Shown here: positions 20,652 through 64,000 of the stretch, piece by piece | How the letters are laid out: every line of letters starts with the position of its first letter | How positions within the stretch are numbered: position 1 is the stretch's first letter | Source of the DNA: Candidatus Latescibacterota bacterium | GTDB lineage: Bacteria > Latescibacterota > UBA2968 > UBA8231 | Direction: 5' to 3' | DNA length: 64,000 nt | Assembly (NCBI GenBank): GCA_965223905.1 | Contig: CBDCXV010000009.1 | Span: forward strand, 192,001 to 256,000 | Made by a program: the position numbers and the translations under genes | The notes under the pieces: generated by a model | Databases searched by the model: none | What the model saw: the letters and a program-made list of their open reading frames with translations, nothing else | What the model was told of the DNA's origin: nothing

Positions 20652-21347
20652 CTATTCCCCGATAACCCTGGGGTTATGCTGGTTTCCGCACAGCAGCTGC
20701 GTCTCCAGTTCCGAGGGATTTTCGATTCTCGCGAGCTGGCTCCGCATGTCCTCCTGCGGAATGAACCAGGGCATCAGGTACATCCCCAGCAGGCAGGACC
20801 TGGCCCTGGCGGTGCGGTTGGGCCGCGACGTGTGCCACCAGGCCCCGTGTGCCACCACCGCGGTGCCGCGGGTTCCTATCAGCATTTCCCCGTCCTCCCG
20901 CCAGCGGTCGGTCGGCGGTTCGGGCGGATGCCCCTTTCGATGCGAGCCGGGCACGACACCGGTGGCCCCGTTCTCCTCGGTGAAGTCGTCGAGGAGCCAC
21001 ACCGTCTGCGCCGCGAAGTTCCCCGCTGGCCAGGGCGGTTGCAGCGACCAGTACGGATAGTCCGCGTGCCACCCGATTCCCTCGTGGCCGGGGTAGATGG
21101 TGTTCGCCGTCCAGGAGGAGCAGATGATGTCGTCGCCGAGGTACCGTTTCCAGATCGACACGATCAGCGGGTGGCACATCAGGTCGAGGAAAACCGAGTG
21201 CTTGTAGGCGATGCCGCCGACGCGCTGGTGCATGCCGGCGCGCGCCGCGTCGTCGATCTCCGCCTCGAGAAACCCCTCGAGAACGGTGCGCGCCGCGTCC
21301 GCTTCTTCAGGGGAGATTGCGTTCGGAAGGATGCCGTGTACCACCAT
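20652..21347 (-). CDS. PhyH-family Fe(II)/2-oxoglutarate dioxygenase (N-terminus possibly truncated)
   Basis: WHAD (HxD); LDDFTEENGATGVVPGSH; distal WWHTS; ARS. Confidence 0.85.
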   Translation of the reverse strand: MVVHGILPNAISPEEADAARTVLEGFLEAEIDDAARAGMHQRVGGIAYKHSVFLDLMCHPLIVSIWKRYLGDDIICSSWTANTIYPGHEGIGWHADYPYWSLQPPWPAGNFAAQTVWLLDDFTEENGATGVVPGSHRKGHPPEPPTDRWREDGEMLIGTRGTAVVAHGAWWHTSRPNRTARARSCLLGMYLMPWFIPQEDMRSQLARIENPSELETQLLCGNQHNPRVIGE

Positions 21348-21415: not shown

Positions 21416-22180
21416 ATGGCCGGTATGACGACAGAAGAAAGGTTCCAGTTCGACCTGCAGGGATACCTGGTGGTTCGGGGCGTGTTGACCTCCGAGGAGG
21501 TCGCCGAGCTCAACGAGCTGGCCGACGAGGCCTGGCCCGGAGAACACGACGGGACCGGCCTGCGCCGCACTTCCAATGTCTCGCAGTGGGGCCCGCGGTT
21601 TCGCGACCTGATCGACCATCCCGGCATCGTTCCCTACCTGGTCGAGCTGATGGGGCCGAAGTTCCGCATCGACCACGACTACAGCATGTTCATGCGCCGC
21701 GGCACCTCGCGCAGCCGCCTGCACGGCGGGCCGTCGCCGCAGTGCTACGAGGGGGATCACTGGTACCGGTTCTATCCCGACGGCACGATCCGCAACGGCC
21801 TGACAGTCTTCACCTACAACCTGACCGACTACAACCCCGGGGACGGCGGCTTCGCCTGCGTGCCGGGCAGCCACAAAACCAACCTGCGCGCGGCCATGCC
21901 GGAGGAGGTGCTCCGCTTCGAGCGTCCGGCCCATTACGTCAGGCAGCCCGCGGTGAAGGCGGGGGACGTGATCATCTTCACCGAGGCGCTGGTGCACGGC
22001 ACCTTTCCCTGGGACGCCGACCACGAGCGCCGGGCCCTGCTCTACAAGTACAGCCCCGGGCATTCCTCCTGGAGCGGCACCTACTACGACCCCGCGGACT
22101 ATCCAGGCGCCACCGAGCAGCAGATCCGCATCATGGCGCCCCCTTCGGTCGGCCAGCGGCCCGACTCGCTGCAGGCATAA
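21416..22180 (+). CDS. PhyH-family Fe(II)/2OG oxygenase with an HGG motif
   Basis: AGGAG RBS; FDLQGYLVVRGVL; LHGG; GGFACVPGSHK; KAGDVIIFTEALVHGT; RRALLYKY. Confidence 0.88.
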   Translation: MAGMTTEERFQFDLQGYLVVRGVLTSEEVAELNELADEAWPGEHDGTGLRRTSNVSQWGPRFRDLIDHPGIVPYLVELMGPKFRIDHDYSMFMRRGTSRSRLHGGPSPQCYEGDHWYRFYPDGTIRNGLTVFTYNLTDYNPGDGGFACVPGSHKTNLRAAMPEEVLRFERPAHYVRQPAVKAGDVIIFTEALVHGTFPWDADHERRALLYKYSPGHSSWSGTYYDPADYPGATEQQIRIMAPPSVGQRPDSLQA

Positions 22181-39402: not shown

Positions 39403-39649
39403 GTGCCGAACCGTCCGGAGCCGGGGAATCTTCCGGATCGCGGGAACCGGCGCCGAGGTTCCATTCGCGGAGCCATCTCCGGTGTTCCGGGGGGAGAAAC
39501 CTGTCTCGCGGGGCTGCCTGGGCTCGCCGTGCATCCCCCGGGGAGCTGCGGCGACGCCATGACCCGGCAGCTCCGCAGCTGCGGGCCCGGGTGTCGCGAG
39601 AGCACCCGACGGGCCCTGAATGTCACAGGGTGAACCTGCTCGCAGGCCC

Positions 39650-42055
39650 GTGAACGAACCTCCGCCGGCTTCCGCCCGCGGTTTTCTCCTGCACGTCTTT
39701 CACCGCACCCAGGGGCCGGCCACCGTCATCTTCGGAGTGGGCCGGCTCGAGTCCGGCGAGACCTTCGCCTTCGCCGACCACCGCGATCCGCCCGCCTTCT
39801 TCGTGCGCGCCGGGGATGCCGCGGCTGCCCGCGTCTGCGCCGGCAGCGACGATGCGGTCGAGCCCTGCGACTGGACGACGATGGACGGCGAGCCGGTGGT
39901 GCGCGTGCGCAGCCGCCGTCTCAACGGCCTGCGTCAGGTCGCCCGGCGTCTTCGCCGGGAGGAAGTCCGCACCTACGAGGCCGACGTAGGCCTGGGGCGC
40001 CGCTACCTCGCCGACCGCGGCATCGCCGGCCCGGTGGAGATCTCGGGGCCGTGGCGGCCCGGCACCGGGGTCGACCGCGTGTACGTAGACCCGGAGCTGC
40101 GGCCGGGGGACTGGGTGCCGGAGCTCTCCGTGCTCGCCCTCGACATCGAGACCACCCCGGACGCCTCCGAAGTCCTGGCCGCCTCGCTGGTCGGCAGCGG
40201 AACGGCCGGCGGCGTGGAAGAGGTCCATATCGCCGGCGCCCCGGCCGCGGGAGATCCCGGCTACCTTCGCTGCCACCACGGGGAGCGCGCCCTGCTGACT
40301 GCACTGGGCGACCGCATCCGCGAGCTCGACCCGGACGTGCTGACCGGGTGGAACCTCGTCGATTTCGACCTCACGGTGCTGCAGCGGCGCTTCCGCGCCC
40401 TGGCGCTCCCGTTCAACCTCGGGCGCAGCAGCGACTCCTCGTGGTACCAGGAGGGGGAGATCTGGGGCGGCAGCCGCATGGTCGTCCACGGCCGCCAGGT
40501 CCTCGACGCCCTGCACCTGGTGCGGGGGACGCTGCAGCGCTTCGACGACTACCGCCTCGAAACCGTGGCGCGCCAGGTCCTGGGGCGGGGCAAGCGGTTC
40601 GCGGGGGGCAGCGACGCCGGCGAGAGCATGCCGGAGGTCATCCTGCGGGCGTACCGCGAGGACCGGACCGCTTTCTGCGACTACTGCCTCGAGGACTCGC
40701 GGCTCGTGCGCGACATCCTCGAAGCGGAGGGGCTTATCGAGCTCACCCTGCGGCGCAGCGTCCTGACCGGGCTGCCGCTGGAGCGGGCCTGGGGCTCGGT
40801 GGCGGCGTTCGACTTCCTCTACATCAGCGAGCTGCACAGGCGCGGCAAGGTCGCCCCGACCAACGGCGTCGACCGCGCCGGTCTCGGGGGGGCTCCCGGC
40901 GGCCTGGTGATGCCGGCCTCCGCCGGCCTCTACCGCAACGTCTTCGTCTTCGATTTCAAGAGCCTGTACCCGACGATCATCCGCACCTTCAACATCGATC
41001 CGCTAGCCCACGTCGAGGCGCGCATCCGCGAAGGGGTCGCGGACGACGAGGTCATCACCGCTCCCAACGGGGCGCGCTTCGCGCGCGAGACGGGAATACT
41101 GCCGCGGTTGCTCGAGCGCTTCTTCGAGAGCCGCGACCGCGCCAAGGCCGCCGGAGACGAGCTGGCGTCGTTCGCCTACAAGATGGTGATGAACTCCTTC
41201 TACGGAGTGCTGGCGACCGAGTCCTGCCGGTTCGCCGAAGGGCAGCTCGCCGGCGCCATCACCGGGTTCGGGCATTACTTCCTGCGCTGGACCCGGGACC
41301 TGCTGCAGGAGAACGGCTGCCGCGTCCTCTACGGCGACACCGACTCCGTCTTCGTCGACGCGGGCCTACCGGAAGACATCGACCCTGCCGAGGGGATCGC
41401 GCGCGGCCGCGAGCTGTGCGCCTGGATCAACGGCCGTCTATCCGAGCATATCGAGGCGAAGCACGGGGTGCGGTCGGTCCTCGACCTGGAGTTCGAGAAG
41501 CTCTACCTGCGCTTCTTCCTGCCGCCGGTCCGCGACGGCGGCGACCGCGGCCGCGCCAAGGGGTACGCCGGGCTGCGGGCCGGGACCTCGGGGGCCGAAG
41601 AGGTCGAGATCGTCGGCATGGAAGCGGTGCGCCGCGACTGGACCGACCTGGCGCGCAACCTGCAGCGCCGGCTGCTGGCGCTGCTGTTCGGCGACGCCCC
41701 GGGGGAGCAGATCGAGGCGGAGGTAGGGGAGTGGATACGCTCCGCCCGGGCCGGGGAGCGGGACGGCGAGCTCGTCTACCCCAAGGCGCTGCGCAAACCG
41801 GTCGAGAGGTATACCAGCACGAGCCCGCCGCACGTGACCGCGGCCCGCATGCTGCCGAACCCTTCCGGGCTGATCGAGTACGTGATGACCGGTGACGGGC
41901 CGCAGCCGCTGGGGCGGGTCAGGGCGCCGCTGGACTACGAGCATTACGTCGAGAAGCAGATCGCCCCGATCGCGCGCACCATCGGACAGGTGTGCGACCT
42001 CGACGTCGAGGCCGCGGTCACCGGCACGCCGGACCTGTTCCGGTCGCTGAGGTAG
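39650..42055 (+). CDS. polB: DNA polymerase II (family B); start uncertain (39620 or 39650)
   Basis: ExoI LDIET; ExoII GWNLVDFD; ExoIII YCLED; motif A FDFKSLYPTII; motif B KMVMNSFYG; motif C YGDTDS. Confidence 0.93.
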   Translation: MNEPPPASARGFLLHVFHRTQGPATVIFGVGRLESGETFAFADHRDPPAFFVRAGDAAAARVCAGSDDAVEPCDWTTMDGEPVVRVRSRRLNGLRQVARRLRREEVRTYEADVGLGRRYLADRGIAGPVEISGPWRPGTGVDRVYVDPELRPGDWVPELSVLALDIETTPDASEVLAASLVGSGTAGGVEEVHIAGAPAAGDPGYLRCHHGERALLTALGDRIRELDPDVLTGWNLVDFDLTVLQRRFRALALPFNLGRSSDSSWYQEGEIWGGSRMVVHGRQVLDALHLVRGTLQRFDDYRLETVARQVLGRGKRFAGGSDAGESMPEVILRAYREDRTAFCDYCLEDSRLVRDILEAEGLIELTLRRSVLTGLPLERAWGSVAAFDFLYISELHRRGKVAPTNGVDRAGLGGAPGGLVMPASAGLYRNVFVFDFKSLYPTIIRTFNIDPLAHVEARIREGVADDEVITAPNGARFARETGILPRLLERFFESRDRAKAAGDELASFAYKMVMNSFYGVLATESCRFAEGQLAGAITGFGHYFLRWTRDLLQENGCRVLYGDTDSVFVDAGLPEDIDPAEGIARGRELCAWINGRLSEHIEAKHGVRSVLDLEFEKLYLRFFLPPVRDGGDRGRAKGYAGLRAGTSGAEEVEIVGMEAVRRDWTDLARNLQRRLLALLFGDAPGEQIEAEVGEWIRSARAGERDGELVYPKALRKPVERYTSTSPPHVTAARMLPNPSGLIEYVMTGDGPQPLGRVRAPLDYEHYVEKQIAPIARTIGQVCDLDVEAAVTGTPDLFRSLR

Positions 42056-50240: not shown

Positions 50241-50603
50241 CTACACCTCGACGAAGACGCGGCCGTCCCGGACGAACGCCGGGTAGGAGCGCACGCGCGC
50301 TCTGCCGGGATCGGTGAGGGAGCGGCCGCTGGCGAGCTCGAATTCCCAGCCGTGCCAGGGGCAGCGGACGATCTCTCCCTGGCGGCCGTAGCGGATCTCC
50401 TCGCCGGGCTTGCAGGGCAACGCCGTGCCGGTCAGCACCCCGTCCGACAGGCGGGCGCCGCGGTGGGAGCAGATGTCGCGCAGGGCGAAGACGCGCTCGC
50501 CGTCGCGCACGACCACGAGGGCGCGGCCGCCGACCTCGACCCGCTTCAGCGCCCCTGGCTGGAAGTCGCCGGCGGCGCCGACGTCAACCGCGGTGGAGGT
50601 CAT
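50241..50603 (-). CDS. Rieske [2Fe-2S] ferredoxin
   Basis: CSHRG...CPWHGWEF. Confidence 0.93.
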   Translation of the reverse strand: MTSTAVDVGAAGDFQPGALKRVEVGGRALVVVRDGERVFALRDICSHRGARLSDGVLTGTALPCKPGEEIRYGRQGEIVRCPWHGWEFELASGRSLTDPGRARVRSYPAFVRDGRVFVEV

Positions 50604-51690
50604 AGAACCGCGAGGCGTTGGCGGCCATGATCCGCTTCCTCAGGGGGCCGGGGACGACCGCGGGAATGGCGCGGTCGGGGGGGTCGAAATCCCAGTGGGG
50701 GTAATCGGTGGCGAACATCAGGAAGTCGTCGCTGCCGATCATGTCCATCAGCTGCAGGAGGTGCTTCGGGTTCGCCGGCTCCTCCATCGGCTGCGTCGTC
50801 GCCCCGAAGTGCTCGACGATGTACTCGCTGGGCAGCTTCGTCAGCCAGGGGACCTCGTCGCGCAGGCCGCGGTAGTTCTTGTCGAGCCGCCACATCAGCC
50901 CCGGCAGCCAGGCGAATCCGCCCTCGACCAGGGCTATCCGCAGCGACGGGAACCTTTCGAAGGTCCCCTCGCAGACCAGGCTCAGCACCTGGGCCTCGAA
51001 CGCCTGCGACATGGCGGTGTGGTCCTCGATGTAGTAGGAAGGCCAGCCGCAGGCGGTTATCGGATTTTCGCCGCCGCGGCCGCCGAAGTGGATACCCACC
51101 GGCAGGCCGGCGTCGCAGGCGGCCTCGAAGATCGGCAGGAACTCGCGCCGGCCGTAGGGGGCGTGGGAGCGCACCAGCAGCAGCACCTGCACGAAGCGCG
51201 GGTCCTCGGCGGCGCGGCGGATCTCCGCGGCCGCGGCCGGAGGGTCGCTGGTGTTGGCGACGATGGAGCCGCGCCAGCGCTCGTCCGCCTCGAGCCAGAC
51301 CGCCGCGGTCCACTCGTTCACCGCCCGCGCCAGGGCGTTGGCGAAGTCGAGGTTGTGCACCGCGGCCATTCCGTAGAGCGGGTTGAGGATGGCGGCCTCG
51401 ATCCCCCAGCAGTCGAGCAGCTGCTCGCGGGCGAAGGCCGGGTCGCTGCCGGGGGTGCCGCCGTCCGGCGGCCAGGCGTCCCGGCGCGAGGCGTGCTCGA
51501 ACCCCTTCGGATAGGTGGGGCCCGGGGGAGCCTTGAATCCCGACTGCTCGATGTAGGCTTTCCAGCGCGCCGACAGGTACGGGAAAAGTTCGGCGATCGA
51601 TCCGGGGTAGTTGTGAACGTCGCAGTCGACCAGCGACAGCGAGGCTCCGTTGCCGCCTATCGCGGCTGCGGCGGGGGCGGTTTCAGTCAT
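50584..51690 (-). CDS. Amidohydrolase_2-fold metalloprotein (candidate dinuclear oxygenase)
   Basis: VDCDVH; GIHFGG; LVEGGFAW; TTQPMEEP; FATDYPHWDFD. Confidence 0.9.
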   Translation of the reverse strand: MTETAPAAAAIGGNGASLSLVDCDVHNYPGSIAELFPYLSARWKAYIEQSGFKAPPGPTYPKGFEHASRRDAWPPDGGTPGSDPAFAREQLLDCWGIEAAILNPLYGMAAVHNLDFANALARAVNEWTAAVWLEADERWRGSIVANTSDPPAAAAEIRRAAEDPRFVQVLLLVRSHAPYGRREFLPIFEAACDAGLPVGIHFGGRGGENPITACGWPSYYIEDHTAMSQAFEAQVLSLVCEGTFERFPSLRIALVEGGFAWLPGLMWRLDKNYRGLRDEVPWLTKLPSEYIVEHFGATTQPMEEPANPKHLLQLMDMIGSDDFLMFATDYPHWDFDPPDRAIPAVVPGPLRKRIMAANASRFYDLHRG

Positions 51691-52177
51691 TTCCGGTACC
51701 GTTTCCGTGAAGGCGCTCGTAGTTGCCGCCGTAAAAAATCAGGGGTTCGCCGCGGCGCGATGCCGCGGCCAGCAGCTCGCCGACGAACATGTCGTGATCG
51801 CCGCCGGACAGCACCTCGACGACCCTGCAATCGGCGAAGGCGAGGGCGTCGTCGAGGATCGGGGAGCCGGTCTCTTTCACCGTGCAGCTGAGGTCGGAAA
51901 AATTCTTGGGGCCCTTCTTCGCGAACCGCCGCGACAGGGACTCGTGCTCCTGCTTGAGCACGTTGACGGCGAAGCACCCGCTCTCGAGCAGGGCGCCGTG
52001 CATGTGGGCGGTCCTGTCCACCGAGACGACGAGGAGGGGCGGGTCGAGGGAGAGCGACATCACGGCGTTGGCGGTCATGCCGCACATCTCGTCCCCGCTC
52101 CGGGTGGTCACCACGGTCACCCCGGTGGCGAAACGGCCCATCACCTGCCGCTGCAGCTCTGAGTCGACAGCCATCAT
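51683..52177 (-). CDS. Flavin reductase (HpaC/NtaB-like)
   Basis: RQVMGRFATGVTVVT; GMTANAVMSLSLDPPL; GGDHDMFVGE; PLIFYGG. Confidence 0.93.
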   Translation of the reverse strand: MMAVDSELQRQVMGRFATGVTVVTTRSGDEMCGMTANAVMSLSLDPPLLVVSVDRTAHMHGALLESGCFAVNVLKQEHESLSRRFAKKGPKNFSDLSCTVKETGSPILDDALAFADCRVVEVLSGGDHDMFVGELLAAASRRGEPLIFYGGNYERLHGNGTGND

Positions 52178-52258
52178 CTGCTCCCGTTACGGAGTCGTCT
52201 GTGCGAACAGGGGCCGAAACATCGATGGTTCGCCGCGTCCGTCAAGCATCCAACCGGC

Positions 52259-53200
52259 TCAGTTCCCCGAGCGCATCTGCCGGCTCTGCTTCGAAACCGT
52301 CTCGAGCTGCTCCTCGTTCCACTCCTCCTGCTGCTGCATCGCGTAGAGCGAGGTGTAGCCACCCGACCAGTCGGGCGGAACCAGGCAGGGGCGTCCGTCG
52401 TGGTGCGCCCACAACGCCGGCCTGCCGCGCACGATCTGTCCTTCGTAGCGGCTCGGCAGCGGGTTGGCGGTATAGGTGAAGGCATCGGCGGAGGAGTAGA
52501 CGTTGAGCAGCAGCGGCCGGCCCTGGTCGGACAGGTTCGGCCTAGAGCCGTGGATGACGCGGCAGTTGTGGATGGTGACCGACCCGGCCTGCCCGGTGAG
52601 GTACTCGACCCCCTCCGTGTCGATGCCGGCGGCGTCCTCCTCGCTCAGGCAGCCGACCCAGTTGCCGTTGGAGTACTGGTTGTAGAGCCGGCCGTTGTGG
52701 CTGCCCCCAATCGCCCCGAGCGGCCCCTGGTCGTCGCCGACGTCGTGCAGGTAGGTGCCGATCGTCAGGGGGCTGTAGTTGGTGTGCGGCCAGTAGGTGA
52801 TGTCCTGGTGCCACTTCACCTCCTCGCCGCCGCGCGCCCATTTGAAGTTGAGCTTCGAGTGGTGAAACTTGACGTCGGGGCCGACGAGGTCGGCGGCGAT
52901 GTCGGCGATGATCGACTGCGAGGCGAACTCCCAGTAGGCCGGGTGGTGCTCGACCGGGCTGGTCAGGCGCCGCAGGCGCGGGTCCCCGGCGGTGTGCCCC
53001 GGCTCCAGGTCGAAGATGGCGTCGGACTGTTCGAGGGAGCGGCTGCGGTCGACCATCTCGCCGGTAACGGCGATGAGCCGCTCGACCCATTCGTCCGGGA
53101 CGACGCGCTCGACGAGCAGGTAGCCTTTGTCGAAGTAGAAGCGGCGCTGCTGGTCGCTGAGTACAACAGGCGGGTGCGAGAGGATCTCTTCAGGAGTCAT
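52259..53200 (-). CDS. PhyH-family Fe(II)/2OG dioxygenase
   Basis: HSKLNFK; WHQD; GGSH; AGSVTIHNCRVIHGS; GRPLL. Confidence 0.92.
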   Translation of the reverse strand: MTPEEILSHPPVVLSDQQRRFYFDKGYLLVERVVPDEWVERLIAVTGEMVDRSRSLEQSDAIFDLEPGHTAGDPRLRRLTSPVEHHPAYWEFASQSIIADIAADLVGPDVKFHHSKLNFKWARGGEEVKWHQDITYWPHTNYSPLTIGTYLHDVGDDQGPLGAIGGSHNGRLYNQYSNGNWVGCLSEEDAAGIDTEGVEYLTGQAGSVTIHNCRVIHGSRPNLSDQGRPLLLNVYSSADAFTYTANPLPSRYEGQIVRGRPALWAHHDGRPCLVPPDWSGGYTSLYAMQQQEEWNEEQLETVSKQSRQMRSGN

Positions 53201-54551: not shown

Positions 54552-56478
54552 TTACATGTGCGACAGCACCCTGCCGTTCTCCACCGTCAGCGCGTAGATG
54601 ACCCCCCACCCTCCTCCGGTCAGCACCTCTCCGAGAATCAGCCCGAGGAAGAACGGCTTGAGCGTCCGGAACAGCTTGCCGCCGCCGACGTGGAGGATGA
54701 TCGCCTTGAGGATCCAGGCGATCAGCGCCGAAAACCAGATGGAGCTGGTCAGCCAGCCGAAGGCGATGGTGAAGCCGATCGGGTGCAGGGGCCACCAGTG
54801 CCAGCGGTGCTGTCCCCACATCAGCAGGAACTCGAAGGCCCCGCCGATCCCCCTGAACAGCCAGCCGCGCATGTTGGCCTCCGGCATGGCGGTCGAGGTC
54901 GGGCCGATGTAGGGCCAGCCGTGGCCCCCGGCCCATTTCAGGGGGTTGAGGTTGATGGCGCCGTAGCTGTAAGAGAGCTCGAGGGTCGTGTAGAGGGACG
55001 CCAACAGGCTGGCGACCAGGGCGATGATCAGGCCCCAGAAGAGGCGGGTTTTCGAGCCCTTCACCGACTCGGCGAGCTTGAGGCCGTTGGAGGCGGCGAC
55101 CATCGGCGAGGTGCGCGATTCCCCCTGCCAGATGAAGGTGTAGGTGAGCGCCACCAGGCCCTTGGTTCCGAGCATCGAGGTGCCGAAACCGGAGATGATG
55201 AAGTAGGCCGGCACGATCGGGCTGCGCGCCGTGGGAACCCCCGCGGTGGCGACGACGCGCGCCACCAGGGCGAAGAAGATCACGCTGACGATGAGAAGCA
55301 CCGGGACATACACCGCCGGCACCCCGGAGCGCCACAGCCAGATGCCTACCGCGGTGAAGCTGACGAGAAAGCCGATGACCGCGGTGCGGTAGCGCAGCAG
55401 CTCCTCGCTGTCGTCGATCCCCTTGCGCGGGCTCCAGGCGGAGCGCATCACGTCCCTGAGGTGGACGCGGGCGCTCCCACAAGCCGAAGAGGATGAAGAC
55501 GATCACCGCCCCGGTCTGCTGGTGCACCAGGTCGGCGGCGGGAGGGTACGACTCGTAGGCGCTCAGGCGCTCGGTGCTGGCGATGCCGAGGACGTTGAAA
55601 ATCCCCTCCTGGATCTTGTAGAAGACGAAGAAGAACCAGACGCTGAAGGTGAGGTCGAGACTGGCGAGGTAGAAGAAGCCGACATAGGCGAAGACGACCC
55701 TCATCGGCAGGTGCACGGTGCCCCGGAACATCGGGAAGCCGATGCTCAGGTTCGGGTCGGGCAGGAAGGGGAAGTAGAAGTTGAGCCCCTTCATGCTCAG
55801 GTACAGGAAGGGAAGGGAGAACCCCACCCACATGATCGGGTTGCGGAACAGGGGAGCCACCTTCGACACGCCCCCCTCTTCGCCGGCGAGCATCCCCTGC
55901 GGCAGCTGCATCATCGGGTAGGCGAGGCGCTCGTGGGTCGACCACTGGCGGTGCAGGATGCCGCTGAGGCAGATCAGCATGAACCCCATCGCCACCACCA
56001 GCCCGAGCCACCAGGCCATCGGCTCGACCCACGCCTCCCACGGGATCGGAGTGCCCCTGGGCAGGCCCTCGTAGTACCCCTTGATGGCCTCGAGGTCCTG
56101 GGGCACGATCCACTGCGGGATGTAGTCGTAGAACAGCTCTTCGAAGCGGTTTTCGGGGGTGGCGTAGTAGAACGGGTAGACGATGGTCCCGATCAGGAAG
56201 AACATCAGCCCCCAGGTCGGCACCGTGACCGCCATCAACAGCATGCAGTAGATGAGAATGAGGTCGGGTTTGGACAGCGCCAGCCGGCGACCGAGAAAGG
56301 CGACGACGATGTTGGCGAAGACGGCACAGGCGAAGAAGAGCAGGGCCCCGGGCGAGGAGGGGTTGAAGCCGATCCAGTGGTACTGGAAGACGGTGACGTA
56401 CGGGGCGACGACCCCGATCGCCAGGCACAAGAGAGTGCCGATACCGAGTCCCTTCAGACTGAAGGCGGATTTGCTCAC
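54552..56478 (-). pseudogene. DUF6785/DUF6784-like polytopic membrane protein (putative transporter), frameshifted near 55477
   Basis: QWSTHERLAYPMMQLP; FFYLASLDLTFSVWFF; after the shift RWHWWPLHPIG...KPFFLGLILGE; one extra G in TGGG explains the shift, so the gene may be intact in vivo. Confidence 0.75.
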
Positions 56479-60115: not shown

Positions 60116-60880
60116 ATGAAACCTGCACGCCGAATCCTCGGCCGCATCGCCGCCGGCCGGCTGACCACCGGGGTGCTCGTCACCGAGCAGCTGTTCCCGC
60201 AGATGGTCGACTACTTCAAGACCGTCGGCCTCGACTACATGATCGTCGACTGCGAGCACGGCGCTTTCGACGACGGACTCGTGGCCGACGTATGCAGCCT
60301 GGGACGCATGGCGGACTTCGCCGTGCTCCTGCGGCCGATCGACTGCGACTACTCGACCATCCGCCGCGCCATCGACCGGGGGCCGTGCGGTTTTCTGCTT
60401 CCCTCGGTGGATTCGGCCGCCGACCTCGACCGCGTGCGCGAGGCCATCTACATGCCGCCGCGCGGTCTGCGCAGGCCGGGGGGCCTGGGCAACTACTGGG
60501 TGTCCGACTACTCGGCCGAAACCTGGAGGGCCGAGGTGGAGGAGGACTTCATCGTGCTGCCGCAGATCGAAACGGTGAAGGGCCTGGAGAACGCCGGGGA
60601 AATCGCCGCCCACGAGCTCACCACGGCGATCGCCATCGGGCCCTACGACCTGTCCCATTCCATCGGCGTCAACGCGCAGATGGACCACCCGGAGTTCCTG
60701 CGGGCGGTGGCGCGCATCCGCGAGGCGGGCGAGAAGGCCGGCAAGACCATGTGGGAGATCGGCGATGCCAGCCTCGTCGCCCGCGGCTGCCGCTTCATCT
60801 GCCTCGGCGAGGCGATGGCCCATCTCAGGGGATCGCTGTCGCAGGGAATCGAGAAAGCGAGAGAGGAGGCCGGAGGATGA
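60116..60880 (+). CDS. HpcH/HpaI aldolase family protein
   Basis: DYMIVDCEHG; YMPPRGLR; LPQIETVKG; IAIGPYDLS. Confidence 0.9.
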   Translation: MKPARRILGRIAAGRLTTGVLVTEQLFPQMVDYFKTVGLDYMIVDCEHGAFDDGLVADVCSLGRMADFAVLLRPIDCDYSTIRRAIDRGPCGFLLPSVDSAADLDRVREAIYMPPRGLRRPGGLGNYWVSDYSAETWRAEVEEDFIVLPQIETVKGLENAGEIAAHELTTAIAIGPYDLSHSIGVNAQMDHPEFLRAVARIREAGEKAGKTMWEIGDASLVARGCRFICLGEAMAHLRGSLSQGIEKAREEAGG

Positions 60881-61860
60881 GCAGGTTCGCCGACTACGAG
60901 AGGGAATTCTTCGCCAGCCAGCTCGACTCCTTCCTTCCGGACCGCGTCTTCGACGCGCACACCCACCTGTGGCGCAAGGAGTTCGTCGAGTGGTCGGTCC
61001 CCGGCGGGCCCGACGACGTCGGCTACCCCGAGCACTGCGAGTTGATGCAGGACCTGCACCCCGGCCGCCATACCGCGGGCCTGTTCCTGCCCTCGGTAGC
61101 CCTCGGCGGCGACGGCAGCTTCCGGCGGCAGAACGGGTGGGTCGCCCAAGCCGTCGCCGCGGCCCCGGACTGCCGCGGCATGTTCTTCGTCAGACCGGAG
61201 GACGACCCGGAGTGGGTGCGCCAGGAGGTGAAACGGCTTGGATTGCACGGCCTCAAGTGCTACCACACGATGGCCTCGGTGAAGCCGACCTGGGAGGCGG
61301 AGATCCCCGACTACCTGCCGGAGCGGCTGGTGAAGGTCGCCGGCGAGGAGGGCTGGGCGATCACCCTGCACATGGTGAAGTCGCGGGCCGCGGCCGATCC
61401 CGGCAACATTCACTGGATCCGCCGTTACTGCGAGACCTACCCGAACATGCGGCTGATCCTCGCCCACTCGGCGCGCGGGTTCCAGCCGGCGCACAACCTC
61501 GAGGGCCTGCCGCAGCTGGCCGGCCTCGACAACCTCTACTGCGACACCAGCGTCAACTGCGAGCCGATGGCCCACCAGGCGATCATCCGCTTCCTCGGGC
61601 ACGACAAGCTGATGTACGGGACCGACCTGCCGGTCTGCCACGGACGCGGCCGGTCGGTGGGGGTCGCCGACACCTTCCTCTGGCTCGGAGAGGAGCAGCC
61701 GGTCTGGGAGGAGAAGCACCAGACCATCCAGCCGCTGGCCATCGGCCTGGAGCACCTGCGCTCGATCAAGTGGGCCTGCTGGGGGGAGCGCCTCGGGGAC
61801 GCCGCGGTCGAGGACATCTTCTGGAACAACGCGGCGCGGCTGTTCGGCATCGAGGACTGA
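60877..61860 (+). CDS. Amidohydrolase family protein
   Basis: GGAGG plus ATGA overlap; VFDAHTH; GLKCYH; TLHMV; ILAHSARGF; LMYGTD. Confidence 0.9.
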   Translation: MSRFADYEREFFASQLDSFLPDRVFDAHTHLWRKEFVEWSVPGGPDDVGYPEHCELMQDLHPGRHTAGLFLPSVALGGDGSFRRQNGWVAQAVAAAPDCRGMFFVRPEDDPEWVRQEVKRLGLHGLKCYHTMASVKPTWEAEIPDYLPERLVKVAGEEGWAITLHMVKSRAAADPGNIHWIRRYCETYPNMRLILAHSARGFQPAHNLEGLPQLAGLDNLYCDTSVNCEPMAHQAIIRFLGHDKLMYGTDLPVCHGRGRSVGVADTFLWLGEEQPVWEEKHQTIQPLAIGLEHLRSIKWACWGERLGDAAVEDIFWNNAARLFGIED

Positions 61861-61888: not shown

Positions 61889-64000
61889 ATGGCCCTGAAG
61901 AAATCCCAGCTCTACTCGTCGCTCTGGCAGAGCTGCGACGAGCTGCGCGGCGGCATGGACGCCTCGCAGTACAAGGACTACGTCCTGACGCTGCTGTTCA
62001 TGAAGTACGTCTCGGACAAGTACGCCGGCAGCCCCGACGCGCTTATCGAAGTTCCCGAAGGCGGCGGCTTCGCCGACATGGTAAGGCTCAAGGGCGACAA
62101 GGAGATCGGCGACAAGATCAACACGATCATCGGTGAGCTCGCCGAGGCCAACGACCTCAAGGGAGTCATCGACCAGGCCGACTTCAACGACGAGAGCAAG
62201 CTCGGCGCCGGCAAGGAGATGCAGGACCGGCTCTCCAAGCTGGTCGCCATATTCGAGGGCCTCGACTTCCGCGCCAACCGCGCCGAGGGGGACGACCTGC
62301 TCGGCGACGCCTACGAGTACCTGATGCGGCACTTCGCCACCGAGTCGGGCAAGAGCAAGGGGCAGTTCTACACCCCGGCCGAAGTCTCGCGCATCATGGC
62401 CAAGGTGGTCGGCATCGGCCCGGATACCCGGCAGGACCAGACCATTTACGACCCGACCTGCGGCTCGGGCTCGCTTCTGCTCAAGGCTGCGGACGAGTCG
62501 CCGAGGGGCATCACCGTGTACGGCCAGGAGATGGACAACGCAACCTGGGCCCTGGCCATGATGAACATGATCCTGCACGGCCATGAAACCGCCGAACTCT
62601 GGCGCGGCAACACCCTGGCCTCCCCGTACTTCAAGCACCCGAAGGGAAGCCTCAAGACCTTCGACTTTGCCGTCGCCAATCCGCCCTTTTCGGCCAAGGC
62701 CTGGTCCAGCGGCATCGATCCGGTCAACGACGAGTTCAGGCGTTTCGAGTACGGAATTCCTCCGGCGAAGAACGGGGACTACGCCTTCCTTTTGCATCTG
62801 ATCACTTCGCTCAATAGCAGGGGAAAGGGCGCGATCATCCTGCCGCACGGCGTGCTGTTCCGCGGCAACAAGGAGGCAGCCATCCGCAGGAATCTCATCC
62901 TCCGGGGCCTCATCAAGGGGATCATCGGCCTGCCCGCCAACCTCTTCTACGGCACCGGCATCCCCGCCTGCATCCTGATCCTCGACAAGGAGAACGCCCA
63001 CGCCCGCAGCGGCATCTTCATGATCGACGCGAGCAGGGGCTTTCTCAAGGACGGCAACAAGAACCGCCTGCGCGCGCAGGACATTCACCTCATCGTCGAC
63101 GTGTTCAACCGGCAGACCGAGGTGCCGCGTTATTCCCGCATGGTGCCGGTGGCCGAGATCGCCGATCCCGCCAACGACTACAACCTCAACCTTCCGCGCT
63201 ACATCGATTCCAGCGAGCCCGAAGACCTCCACGACCTCGAGGCGCATCTGCAAGGCGGCATACCCGACCGCGACCTGGACGCGCTCGATACCTACTGGAA
63301 CGTCTTCCCCTCGCTGCGCCAGGCGTTGTTTGCCGGCAACGGCAGGGCGGGCTACAGCGAGGCGCGGGTCGAGACGCCGCAACAGAAGGCGGCCATCCTC
63401 GGAAACCGGGAGTTCAAGTCGTACGAGGCGCGTGTCGCTGGTATCTTTGAGGCATGGCGTGAGGCGCACGAGCCGGTTCTCAAGGGACTGGAGGCGGGGG
63501 CCGATCCAAAGGAGGTCGTCGGCGGTTTGTCGGAAGATCTGCTGAAGAGATTTGCCGACTTGCCGCTGCTCGATCCATACGACGTGTACCAGCGGCTGAT
63601 GGACTATTGGGAAGAGGAAATGCAGGACGACGTATATCTCATTGCCGCTGACGGCTGGACCGAGGCCGCCAGGCCGCGCGGCATCATCGAGGACAGGGAA
63701 AGGAAGATCAAGGAGACGGCGGATCTCACGATCAAGCGCAGGAAGTACAAGATGGACCTGATCCCTCCGGAGCTGATCGTCGCGCGCTACTTCGCCGATA
63801 AACAGGCCGCCATCGATGCGCTACAGGCAAGACAGGAAGCTGCCGCCCGCGAGCTGGAGGAGTTCGTTGAAGAGCACACTGGCGACGGCTTGCTGGAGGA
63901 TGCGGTCAACGACAAGGGCAAGGTCACCAAGGGCGGCGTGACAGAGCGGCTCAAGGCTATCCGATACGAGCTGGAGAGCGACGAGGAACGCGATGCCCTC
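61889..64000 (+). CDS. hsdM: Type I restriction-modification DNA methyltransferase subunit M (runs off the window)
   Basis: GGAGGTGA RBS; MALKKSQLYSSLWQSCDELRGGMDASQYKDYVL; GKSKGQFYTPAEVS; YDPTCGSGSLL; VANPPFS; LPHGVLFRG; absent from the ORF track because no stop lies in the window. Confidence 0.95.
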   Translation, partial: MALKKSQLYSSLWQSCDELRGGMDASQYKDYVLTLLFMKYVSDKYAGSPDALIEVPEGGGFADMVRLKGDKEIGDKINTIIGELAEANDLKGVIDQADFNDESKLGAGKEMQDRLSKLVAIFEGLDFRANRAEGDDLLGDAYEYLMRHFATESGKSKGQFYTPAEVSRIMAKVVGIGPDTRQDQTIYDPTCGSGSLLLKAADESPRGITVYGQEMDNATWALAMMNMILHGHETAELWRGNTLASPYFKHPKGSLKTFDFAVANPPFSAKAWSSGIDPVNDEFRRFEYGIPPAKNGDYAFLLHLITSLNSRGKGAIILPHGVLFRGNKEAAIRRNLILRGLIKGIIGLPANLFYGTGIPACILILDKENAHARSGIFMIDASRGFLKDGNKNRLRAQDIHLIVDVFNRQTEVPRYSRMVPVAEIADPANDYNLNLPRYIDSSEPEDLHDLEAHLQGGIPDRDLDALDTYWNVFPSLRQALFAGNGRAGYSEARVETPQQKAAILGNREFKSYEARVAGIFEAWREAHEPVLKGLEAGADPKEVVGGLSEDLLKRFADLPLLDPYDVYQRLMDYWEEEMQDDVYLIAADGWTEAARPRGIIEDRERKIKETADLTIKRRKYKMDLIPPELIVARYFADKQAAIDALQARQEAAARELEEFVEEHTGDGLLEDAVNDKGKVTKGGVTERLKAIRYELESDEERDAL

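Follow-up and report, generated by a model that had tools for sequence, protein, structure and literature searches.

We analyzed a 64,000-nt stretch (hereafter, the window) of an assembly assigned to a Candidatus Latescibacterota bacterium (GCA_965223905.1; contig CBDCXV010000009.1, positions 192,001 to 256,000) and propose that two adjacent genes within it encode a two-protein oxygenase, composed of a 368-aa amidohydrolase-related dinuclear oxygenase (ARO) and a 120-aa Rieske ferredoxin. The source genome, G000 (window at G000:C9:192001-256000), is represented by a 7.9-Mb assembly that is 93.6% complete. Judging from the sequences, we consider this identification of the core pair very likely to be correct; the whole explanation, which adds to the core a setting of other oxygenase genes and a flavin reductase, we regard as probable, with clearly less assurance. 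The window ARO is a new, uncharacterised member of an enzyme class described between 2021 and 2026 and not a new kind of enzyme, because the pairing of an ARO with a Rieske ferredoxin is itself the published rule by which such enzymes are discovered (Liu 2024, 2026).

The pair belongs to a unit of four co-directional genes on the minus strand, which encode, in order, a PhyH-family Fe(II)/2-oxoglutarate dioxygenase of 313 aa (52259..53200; PF05721, E 1.1e-27), an NAD(P)H:flavin reductase of the HpaC/PheA2 type with 164 aa (51683..52177; PF01613 over residues 13-156, E 2.5e-42), the ARO, of single-subunit type (50584..51690; PF04909, Amidohydro_2, over residues 21-365, E 1.5e-38), and the Rieske [2Fe-2S] ferredoxin (50241..50603; PF00355, E 4e-20). 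The reductase stop lies over the ARO start in an 8-nt overlap, and the ARO end lies over the Rieske start in a 20-nt overlap. An 81-nt spacer on the same strand (52178..52258) separates the PhyH stop from the reductase start and carries GGGAG a few bases before the ATG. An earlier note on this DNA had described these coordinates, the overlaps and a PhyH gap of about 80 nt, all of which agree with our measurements. Simple scans found neither a sigma-70-like promoter nor a minus-strand terminator in the spacer; they returned no promoter-like site and only as many terminator-like matches as shuffled sequence would give. The unit is bounded downstream by a convergent DUF2961 gene, and upstream of it lie a Kelch-repeat gene and a frameshifted DUF6785 membrane-protein gene.

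The PF04909 protein and its predicted metal sites

The PF04909 protein is almost certainly an ARO of the AibH2/PtmU3 kind with both metal sites intact, as fold, predicted ligands and class motifs indicate. Its closest sequences in the PDB are 8SM7 (E 2.2e-95, residues 19-365), the sulfonate beta-monooxygenase SfbO (8SM6, 5.9e-81) and AibH2 (6M1W_B, 2e-76), followed by 8SM9 (9.1e-74), 8SM8 (4.1e-67) and AibH1 (2.5e-62); PtmU3 (2.2e-17) and DitZ (1.9e-05) match more distantly, and non-redox decarboxylases appear from 1.7e-15 on. An AlphaFold2 model built from an alignment of 121 relatives (predicted local distance difference test 90.3, predicted template modelling score 0.90) gave the same ranking in kind, with AibH2, SfbO and 8SM7 at the top of a Foldseek search at query-normalised template modelling (TM) scores of 0.86-0.89, PtmU3 at 0.74, and decarboxylases and hydratases at 0.62-0.70.

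The metal ligands of AibH2 are D25, H27, H211, E265, D337 and H340, with D342 as the residue that marks binuclear members (accessible text of Hibi 2021, PMC7782822). In a HMMER alignment with AibH2 (6m1w_B) these seven residues fall on D24, H26, H201, E256, D329, H332 and D334 of the window protein, so that the first six are its predicted ligands and D334 a predicted second-sphere residue. Two motifs define AROs in the accessible text of Liu 2026 (PMC13154177): an N-terminal D-x-H on strand 1, which provides two ligands of metal site 1, and, after about 200 residues, a C-terminal D-x-P-H-x-D/E loop that scaffolds site 2. Both occur in the window protein, where the motif D22-C-D24-V-H26 has D24-V25-H26 on a strand predicted at 21-25, and the motif T328-D-Y-P-H-W-D-F-D336 contains D329-Y-P-H332-W-D334, preceded by 328 residues. 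D24 and H26 are invariant across the 121 aligned relatives, and the position of D334 is H or Q in 26 of the 121, as in non-catalytic AibH1-like subunits. The motifs named in the earlier note, including H201 and E256, are thus present, and its proposal that this amidohydrolase-fold protein is a dinuclear oxygenase is borne out by the alignments and the model; the ligands of both AibH2 metal sites have their counterparts in it.

In a non-redox reading, the Rieske and reductase genes would be unrelated neighbours of a PF04909 protein that acts as an ordinary hydrolase, a hydratase or a decarboxylase. Support for it comes from the Pfam family name, Amidohydrolase, and from NCBIfam, where 0 families match the protein. 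We consider it highly improbable. The decarboxylases and hydratases are distant in both sequence (E 1.7e-15 and weaker) and structure (TM 0.62-0.70) while the AROs are close; both ARO motifs are reported as absent from the characterised hydrolases and decarboxylases of this fold in the accessible text of Liu 2026; the small PF04909 genes of the same clusters in related genomes show another pattern, D-x-H-x-H with no P-H-x-D loop; and the ARO gene is followed by a Rieske gene at 24 of the 25 orthologous loci.

By published sequence criteria the window ARO probably belongs to the low-potential class that uses Mn/Fe or Mn. The rule for this class (Liu 2026, PMC13154177, Table 1) asks for a hydrophobic residue at the position gamma1, a hydrophilic one at gamma2 and an aromatic one at gamma4, for which the window ARO has V25, N103 and W333, respectively. 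N103 was placed at gamma2 through the SfbO alignment (the T of 'AILT') and the end of a strand predicted at 99-102. An aromatic gamma5, tied to the ferredoxin docking interface in the same source, is present as F335. Two considerations weigh against this assignment: the gamma2 position is derived from our alignment and not from the authors' numbered one, and the sequence rule behind the Mn assignment was validated on 15 proteins.

Comparison with characterised AROs

Looking for hidden monooxygenases among amidohydrolases that neighbour small Rieske proteins is exactly the discovery strategy of Liu 2024 (accessible text, PMC10811679), and Liu 2026 (accessible text, PMC13154177) counts about 17,000 AROs and about 3,307 Rieske-linked candidates. 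The earlier note had presented the single oxygenase gene of the window as a departure from known systems; this does not hold, because a single ARO gene with a Rieske neighbour is already a published pattern, seen in SfbO and three orphans (Liu 2024, PMC10811679).

The best-matching solved sequence, 8SM7, carries the PDB title 'G. y4 TruffO', which we read as the orphan ARO D3EI84 of Geobacillus sp. Y412MC10, a protein listed in the Mn-dependent low-potential class in the accessible text of Liu 2026. It aligns with the window model at 42% identity and TM 0.86/0.91 in Foldseek. Each is an ARO encoded by one gene and was spotted by the Rieske ferredoxin beside it, and they share a histidine and a hydrophobic residue at the positions of the sulfonate-binding arginines of SfbO. 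They differ in that identity is only about 42-50% and the window ARO stands in a separate 25-row clade of uncultured marine lineages. As 8SM7 itself has no known substrate, it transfers no function to the window ARO.

SfbO of Litorilinea aerophila, whose Rieske partner is SfbR, has the same fold and ligands (TM 0.89/0.93) and, like the window ARO, is a single-gene ARO, homo-oligomeric in the case of SfbO, with an adjacent Rieske gene, W at gamma4 and an aromatic gamma5. Its sulfate-binding R232 and R235 are replaced in the window ARO by H224 and M227, so a sulfonate substrate of the SfbO kind is not expected. In the Aib system of Rhodococcus wratislaviensis (Hibi 2021, Powell 2023), all AibH2 ligands are conserved with the window ARO and electrons likewise arrive via a Rieske ferredoxin, AibG, but AibH1H2 is a heterotetramer of two PF04909 subunits, whereas the window has one ARO gene. 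The reductases differ as well. AibF is a 322-aa ferredoxin:NAD+ oxidoreductase with flavin mononucleotide (FMN) and a [2Fe-2S] cluster (accessible text of Hibi 2021, PMC7782822) and is of the ferredoxin-NADP reductase (FNR) type, in contrast to the adjacent 164-aa PF01613 protein of the window; Pfam named no FNR-type reductase family for the window genes examined beside the cluster, where a reductase of the Aib type was thus not found. The high-potential diiron AROs PtmU3 and DitZ belong to the same superfamily by the same two-motif definition, but, according to the accessible text of Liu 2026, gamma1 is hydrophilic in them, gamma2 is aromatic, and most have no Rieske gene nearby, the opposite of the window ARO in each respect.

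Conservation of the ARO and Rieske pair

G000 contains a single match to the window ARO at E 1e-5 or better. Matches at E 1e-20 or better were found in 31 of 40 related genomes, including 16 of the 24 that belong to the same family, and the closest public records are metagenome-assembled genomes (MAGs) labelled Candidatus Latescibacterota, Gemmatimonadota, Chloroflexota and Spirochaetia. We defined orthologous loci as those with at least 60% ARO identity, which left 25 distinct loci after removal of duplicates, and compared them with 70 more distant loci. Every one of the 25 has a single ARO gene, and the downstream Rieske gene is on the same strand in the 24 that have it, the exception (L039) being at a contig end. 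Among the distant loci, a Rieske gene follows the ARO gene on the same strand in 53, at least two ARO genes in 31 and a flavin reductase in 0. The pairing of ARO and Rieske genes is not due to chance, and this survey of homologue neighbourhoods upholds the earlier claim that the Rieske protein is the partner of the oxygenase. The conserved partnership, like the fold, the ligands and the class motifs, can be read directly from the sequences.

In a quick maximum-likelihood tree, the window ARO and the 24 orthologous loci in the alignment form one clade of 25 rows (96 in the Shimodaira-Hasegawa-like approximate likelihood ratio test, SH-aLRT), set apart from the two clades into which the two members of tandem AibH1H2-like pairs fall. 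All 25 rows keep every ligand together with W333, D334 and F335. Six residues, Y28, Q49, K62, R70, W139 and F323, are invariant within the clade and rare outside it; the two basic ones are a faint hint that the substrate may be anionic.

The neighbourhoods offered no further guide to the substrate. Besides the pair, the 25 orthologous loci contain a flavin reductase in 6, a luciferase-like monooxygenase (LLM; PF00296) in 5, a small PF04909 gene in 5, a PhyH-family gene in 9 and an M24 (creatinase-like) gene in 2. We attempted to assign a substrate from these contexts and rejected the attempt, since they are too variable for a pathway to be read (class III aminotransferase, GFO/IDH/MocA, aldo-keto reductase with a major facilitator superfamily transporter, sulfatase); loci with TauD, creatinase-like M24 or glutamine synthetase-like genes likewise yielded no pathway assignment.

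The orthologue clade, at 61-76% identity, mixes MAGs with Latescibacterota, Gemmatimonadota, Chloroflexota and Spirochaetia labels, a mixture that points either to transfer among marine lineages that occur together or to errors in binning. Many other relatives have 2-4 tandem ARO genes followed by one Rieske gene (L025, L028, L044, L047, L048, L055-L060, L067, L069, L071-L072, L085 and others).

The Rieske ferredoxin

The Rieske protein is a conserved partner of the ARO and its presumed electron donor. At 120 aa it falls under the 250 aa that bounds the small Rieske type, and its cluster ligands lie in C45-S-H47 and C81-P-W-H84, separated by a 33-residue spacer. The alignment with CarAc, the ferredoxin of carbazole dioxygenase, breaks into residues 7-59 and 75-118, and CarAc lacks the intervening insert of about 15 residues (60-74). 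The insert between the Cys/His boxes that the earlier note had pointed out is therefore real.

We extended this comparison to 79 loci (L033-L111) fetched with the ARO as query, of which 63 had a Rieske match and 62 a motif that could be parsed. The spacer between C-x-H and C-x-x-H measured 32-37 residues in all 62 (32 in 45 proteins, 33 in 10, 34 in 3 and 37 in 4), and C45, H47, C81, W83, H84, W86 and G93 are invariant among these ARO-linked proteins. The insert of about 15 residues may thus be a signature of the ARO-linked Rieske clade, a feature that is not discussed in the accessible portions of the ARO papers. The window protein remains below the NCBIfam equivalog cut-offs (best AndAb, 59.3 bits versus 150).

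The flavin reductase and the source of electrons

Which protein feeds the Rieske ferredoxin is less easily read from the locus. The window reductase is a typical member of the HpaC/PheA2 type that serves two-component flavin monooxygenases, whether luciferase-like or of the HpaB type. Its best PDB match is PheA2 (1rz0, E 9.9e-31), and it falls below the NCBIfam equivalog cut-offs of HsaB (124 versus 230 bits), FerA (123.6 versus 260) and HpaC_Thermus (120 versus 200). It is the one PF01613 match in G000, a genome with at least three luciferase-like genes, and luciferase-like two-component flavin monooxygenases need a flavin reductase as partner.

Counting G000, 26 genomes carry one copy each of a reductase orthologue (50% identity or more), and in 8 of these 26 loci, from four genera, the reductase adjoins the ARO and/or the Rieske gene. 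The eight are three genomes of the window's genus together with G004, G020, G010, G023 and G016. Gene order runs LLM-reductase-ARO-Rieske in G004 and G020 and reductase-small PF04909-ARO-Rieske in G010 and G023; in G016 the reductase has upstream of it a Rieske gene, with a beta-lactamase-family gene between the two, and also, at a distance of about 1.5 kb by genome coordinates, an ARO fragment. G030 has LLM-reductase and no ARO match at 1e-20. The remaining 17 orthologues lie elsewhere, and the 11 of them that were scanned with Pfam have as neighbours GCV_T-type aminomethyltransferase (2), formate-tetrahydrofolate ligase (2), sulfatase (3) and enolase-superfamily (2) genes, among others. Viewed from the ARO, the 6 linked cases among the 25 orthologous loci all fall within three genera.

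Most likely, the reductase is a general supplier of reduced flavin to LLM enzymes and not a dedicated Rieske reductase, because it is linked to so few orthologous ARO loci, is the sole PF01613 gene of its genome and stands beside an LLM in sister genera. An LLM lies directly before the reductase in G004, G020 and G030, whereas in the window none is adjacent and the nearest orthologue is about 190 kb away. Two observations count against a role confined to LLM enzymes: the window's genus, G010 and G023 keep the reductase with the ARO and Rieske genes with no LLM adjacent, and in the window the reductase stop overlaps the ARO start.

The alternative is a dedicated chain in which NAD(P)H would reduce the HpaC-type reductase, the reductase the Rieske ferredoxin and the ferredoxin the dinuclear oxygenase, with the reductase replacing AibF and the PhyH enzyme acting on the same substrate. 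The overlaps of 8 and 20 nt fit coupled translation of the three genes, and an RNA-library contig (51646-51825) spans the reductase/ARO junction with 5 mismatches. Searches with 12 query proteins matched no further gene in the loci where the reductase adjoins the ARO and/or the Rieske gene, among which G010 and G023 have no adjacent LLM, and Pfam named no ferredoxin-reductase family among the called open reading frames of the scanned loci. The second-best NCBIfam match of the reductase, the ferric reductase FerA, belongs to a family that can reduce iron centres via flavin. More generally, reduced flavin can reduce iron centres, as with Fre and ribonucleotide reductase of Escherichia coli and with ferric reductases of the PF01613-type family.

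The distribution of the genes speaks against this chain. The reductase is absent from all 70 distant ARO loci as well as from most orthologous ones; a search for the reductase at E 1e-10 or better drew no match in G014 (97% complete), G007 (90%), G006 (85%) and G005 (81%), each of which has an ARO orthologue; the reductase match in G021, where an ARO orthologue is also present, is only 26% identical; and G017 and G030 have a reductase orthologue and no ARO match. The reductase is, moreover, the only one of its family in the genome, where three or more luciferase-like genes require a protein of this kind. A literature search, whose coverage excluded subscription journals, returned no paper in which a flavin reductase is described as the partner, in this sense, of a Rieske ferredoxin or an ARO, and flavin reductases go unmentioned in the searched main text of the ARO papers (the word "flavin" occurs 0 times in the accessible text of Liu 2026, PMC13154177). 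The PhyH part of the chain is weakened by the at least 151 PhyH copies in the genome and by an orthologue that is adjacent only within the genus. Prediction of a complex between an FMN-containing reductase dimer and the Rieske protein carrying a 2Fe-2S cluster (score 0.00, mark 0.32) weighs neither way.

Taken together, we find the dedicated chain unlikely. The more modest proposal that the reductase, besides supplying LLM enzymes, also feeds the Rieske protein or the metal site with electrons via reduced flavin is in our view a minority possibility of similar weight, and we are more doubtful still that the 164-aa protein is the NAD(P)H entry of a three-component system of reductase, Rieske ferredoxin and Mn/Fe oxygenase. 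The earlier note had made the reductase a member of the electron chain; the adjacency and overlap on which it relied stand, but the linkage in 6 of 25 loci, the single PF01613 gene and the position beside an LLM in sister genera tell against the role. Were the three-component arrangement true, electrons might travel via bound or diffusible reduced flavin, and a flavin monooxygenase and a metal oxygenase of a single catabolic pathway would share one reductase.

Gene sets of relatives and a second oxygenase cluster

In G012, G018 and G006, the ARO and Rieske genes are contiguous with an LLM and a small PF04909 gene, and no reductase is present there. The small PF04909 proteins have D-x-H-x-H and no P-H-x-D loop, and are therefore not AROs. 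From such arrangements we infer, at a little better than even confidence, that in this bacterial family the pair belongs to a gene set whose order varies by genus. The set would comprise the ARO and Rieske genes, an LLM, a small mononuclear PF04909 hydrolase or decarboxylase, a PhyH enzyme and one NAD(P)H:flavin reductase. The reductase would provide the luciferase-like enzymes in general with reduced flavin and, in the window, is probably co-translated with the oxygenase genes.

A second oxygenase cluster of G000 (G000:C9:49061-51856; L116 8062-10857) has the order UxuA-like, LLM, PhyH and small PF04909. Its LLM, PhyH and small PF04909 genes form a trio about 190 kb upstream of the ARO locus on the same contig, with no reductase, and in G012, G018 and G006 genes related to those of the cluster (58-63% identity) adjoin the ARO and Rieske genes or lie near them. 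We considered whether the trio is the missing half of an ancestral cluster that was split, and did not adopt this view, which is not established, because the G000 LLM shares more identity with a second G012 copy without ARO linkage (76%) than with the ARO-linked copy (about 60%). That relationship also weighs against the proposed gene set, as does the otherwise high variability of the orthologue neighbourhoods, which include aminotransferase, aldo-keto reductase, major facilitator superfamily and sulfatase genes.

The PhyH gene

Whether the PhyH enzyme belongs to the same pathway as the ARO is uncertain. Its metal motif is H131-Q-D133, and its best PDB match is the ectoine hydroxylase EctD (E 5.1e-14), but NCBIfam does not class it as an ectoine hydroxylase (56 bits versus a cut-off of 336.5). 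An orthologue adjoins the cluster only in two genomes of the same genus, and in G012 a 68%-identical orthologue adjoins the LLM instead. At E 1e-5 or better, PF05721 matched G000 no fewer than 151 times, which in 7.9 Mb comes to roughly one copy every 52 kb; the count is a lower bound because 150 of 255 candidates were scored, and the same search gave no PF05721 match in 14 control genomes. With at least 151 PhyH genes in the genome, adjacency alone says little, and we set aside PhyH linkage as weak evidence of coupling. The linked PhyH of the earlier note is thus correct as to position, while the restriction of the adjacent orthologue to one genus and the number of copies take away most of what could be read from it. 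The family is hugely expanded in G000, and the window alone holds copies at 20652-21347 (minus strand), 21416-22180 (plus strand) and 52259-53200 (minus strand).

Hints of expression

Two metatranscriptome runs from one study, both labelled sponge metagenome, held small shares of the stretch. Mismatch-free RNA-library contigs lie on the Rieske gene (50286-50437), on the ARO gene (50868-51022, 51367-51524, 51394-51606 and 51515-51686) and on the reductase gene, reaching into the spacer (51935-52230), in addition to the junction-spanning contig mentioned above. These are a weak hint that the three genes are expressed, given that DNA may occur in RNA libraries and that such contigs cannot show a single transcript. 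Most of the PhyH gene is among the parts of the cluster with no RNA-library contigs, from which we draw no conclusion.

Proposed reaction and implications

We propose that the ARO builds a two-metal site in its TIM barrel, probably Mn/Fe by the published sequence rules, and that the Rieske ferredoxin would hand electrons to it one at a time. These electrons would reduce the oxidised M(III)M(III) cluster, allowing O2 to bind, and the reduced cluster together with O2 would hydroxylate a C-H bond of a small substrate. The identity of the metals, the O2 chemistry, the electron route and the nature of the substrate are the inferred parts of this scheme.

The locus leaves the picture of the ARO class unchanged, and its value lies in annotation and in substrate discovery. 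The "amidohydrolase" of annotation pipelines should here read "putative dinuclear (Mn/Fe) oxygenase with Rieske ferredoxin". Few substrates are known in the ARO superfamily, and the 25-locus clade, with its Latescibacterota, Gemmatimonadota, Chloroflexota and Spirochaetia labels, is a defined subfamily in which to look for more. As most loci have no reductase gene, what reduces the ARO-linked Rieske ferredoxins is a mechanistic question in its own right.

Other features of the window

A DUF6785/DUF6784 membrane-protein gene (54552-56478, minus strand), the one noted upstream of the four-gene unit, is split between frames, with a frame change near 55454-55476. The G001 orthologue aligns to the window in two segments that lie in different frames, and the split reflects either a frameshift or an assembly error; at the locus examined in G002 the gene had no match at this position. 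A family B DNA polymerase gene lies at 39620-42055 on the plus strand. A second PF04909 gene of the window (60877-61860, plus strand) follows an HpcH/HpaI aldolase gene; its product has H-x-H near the N-terminus (D-A-H-T-H) and no D-x-P-H-x-D/E loop, and is therefore not an ARO. A type I restriction-modification methylase (HsdM) gene occupies 61889-63997 on the plus strand, up to the window end.

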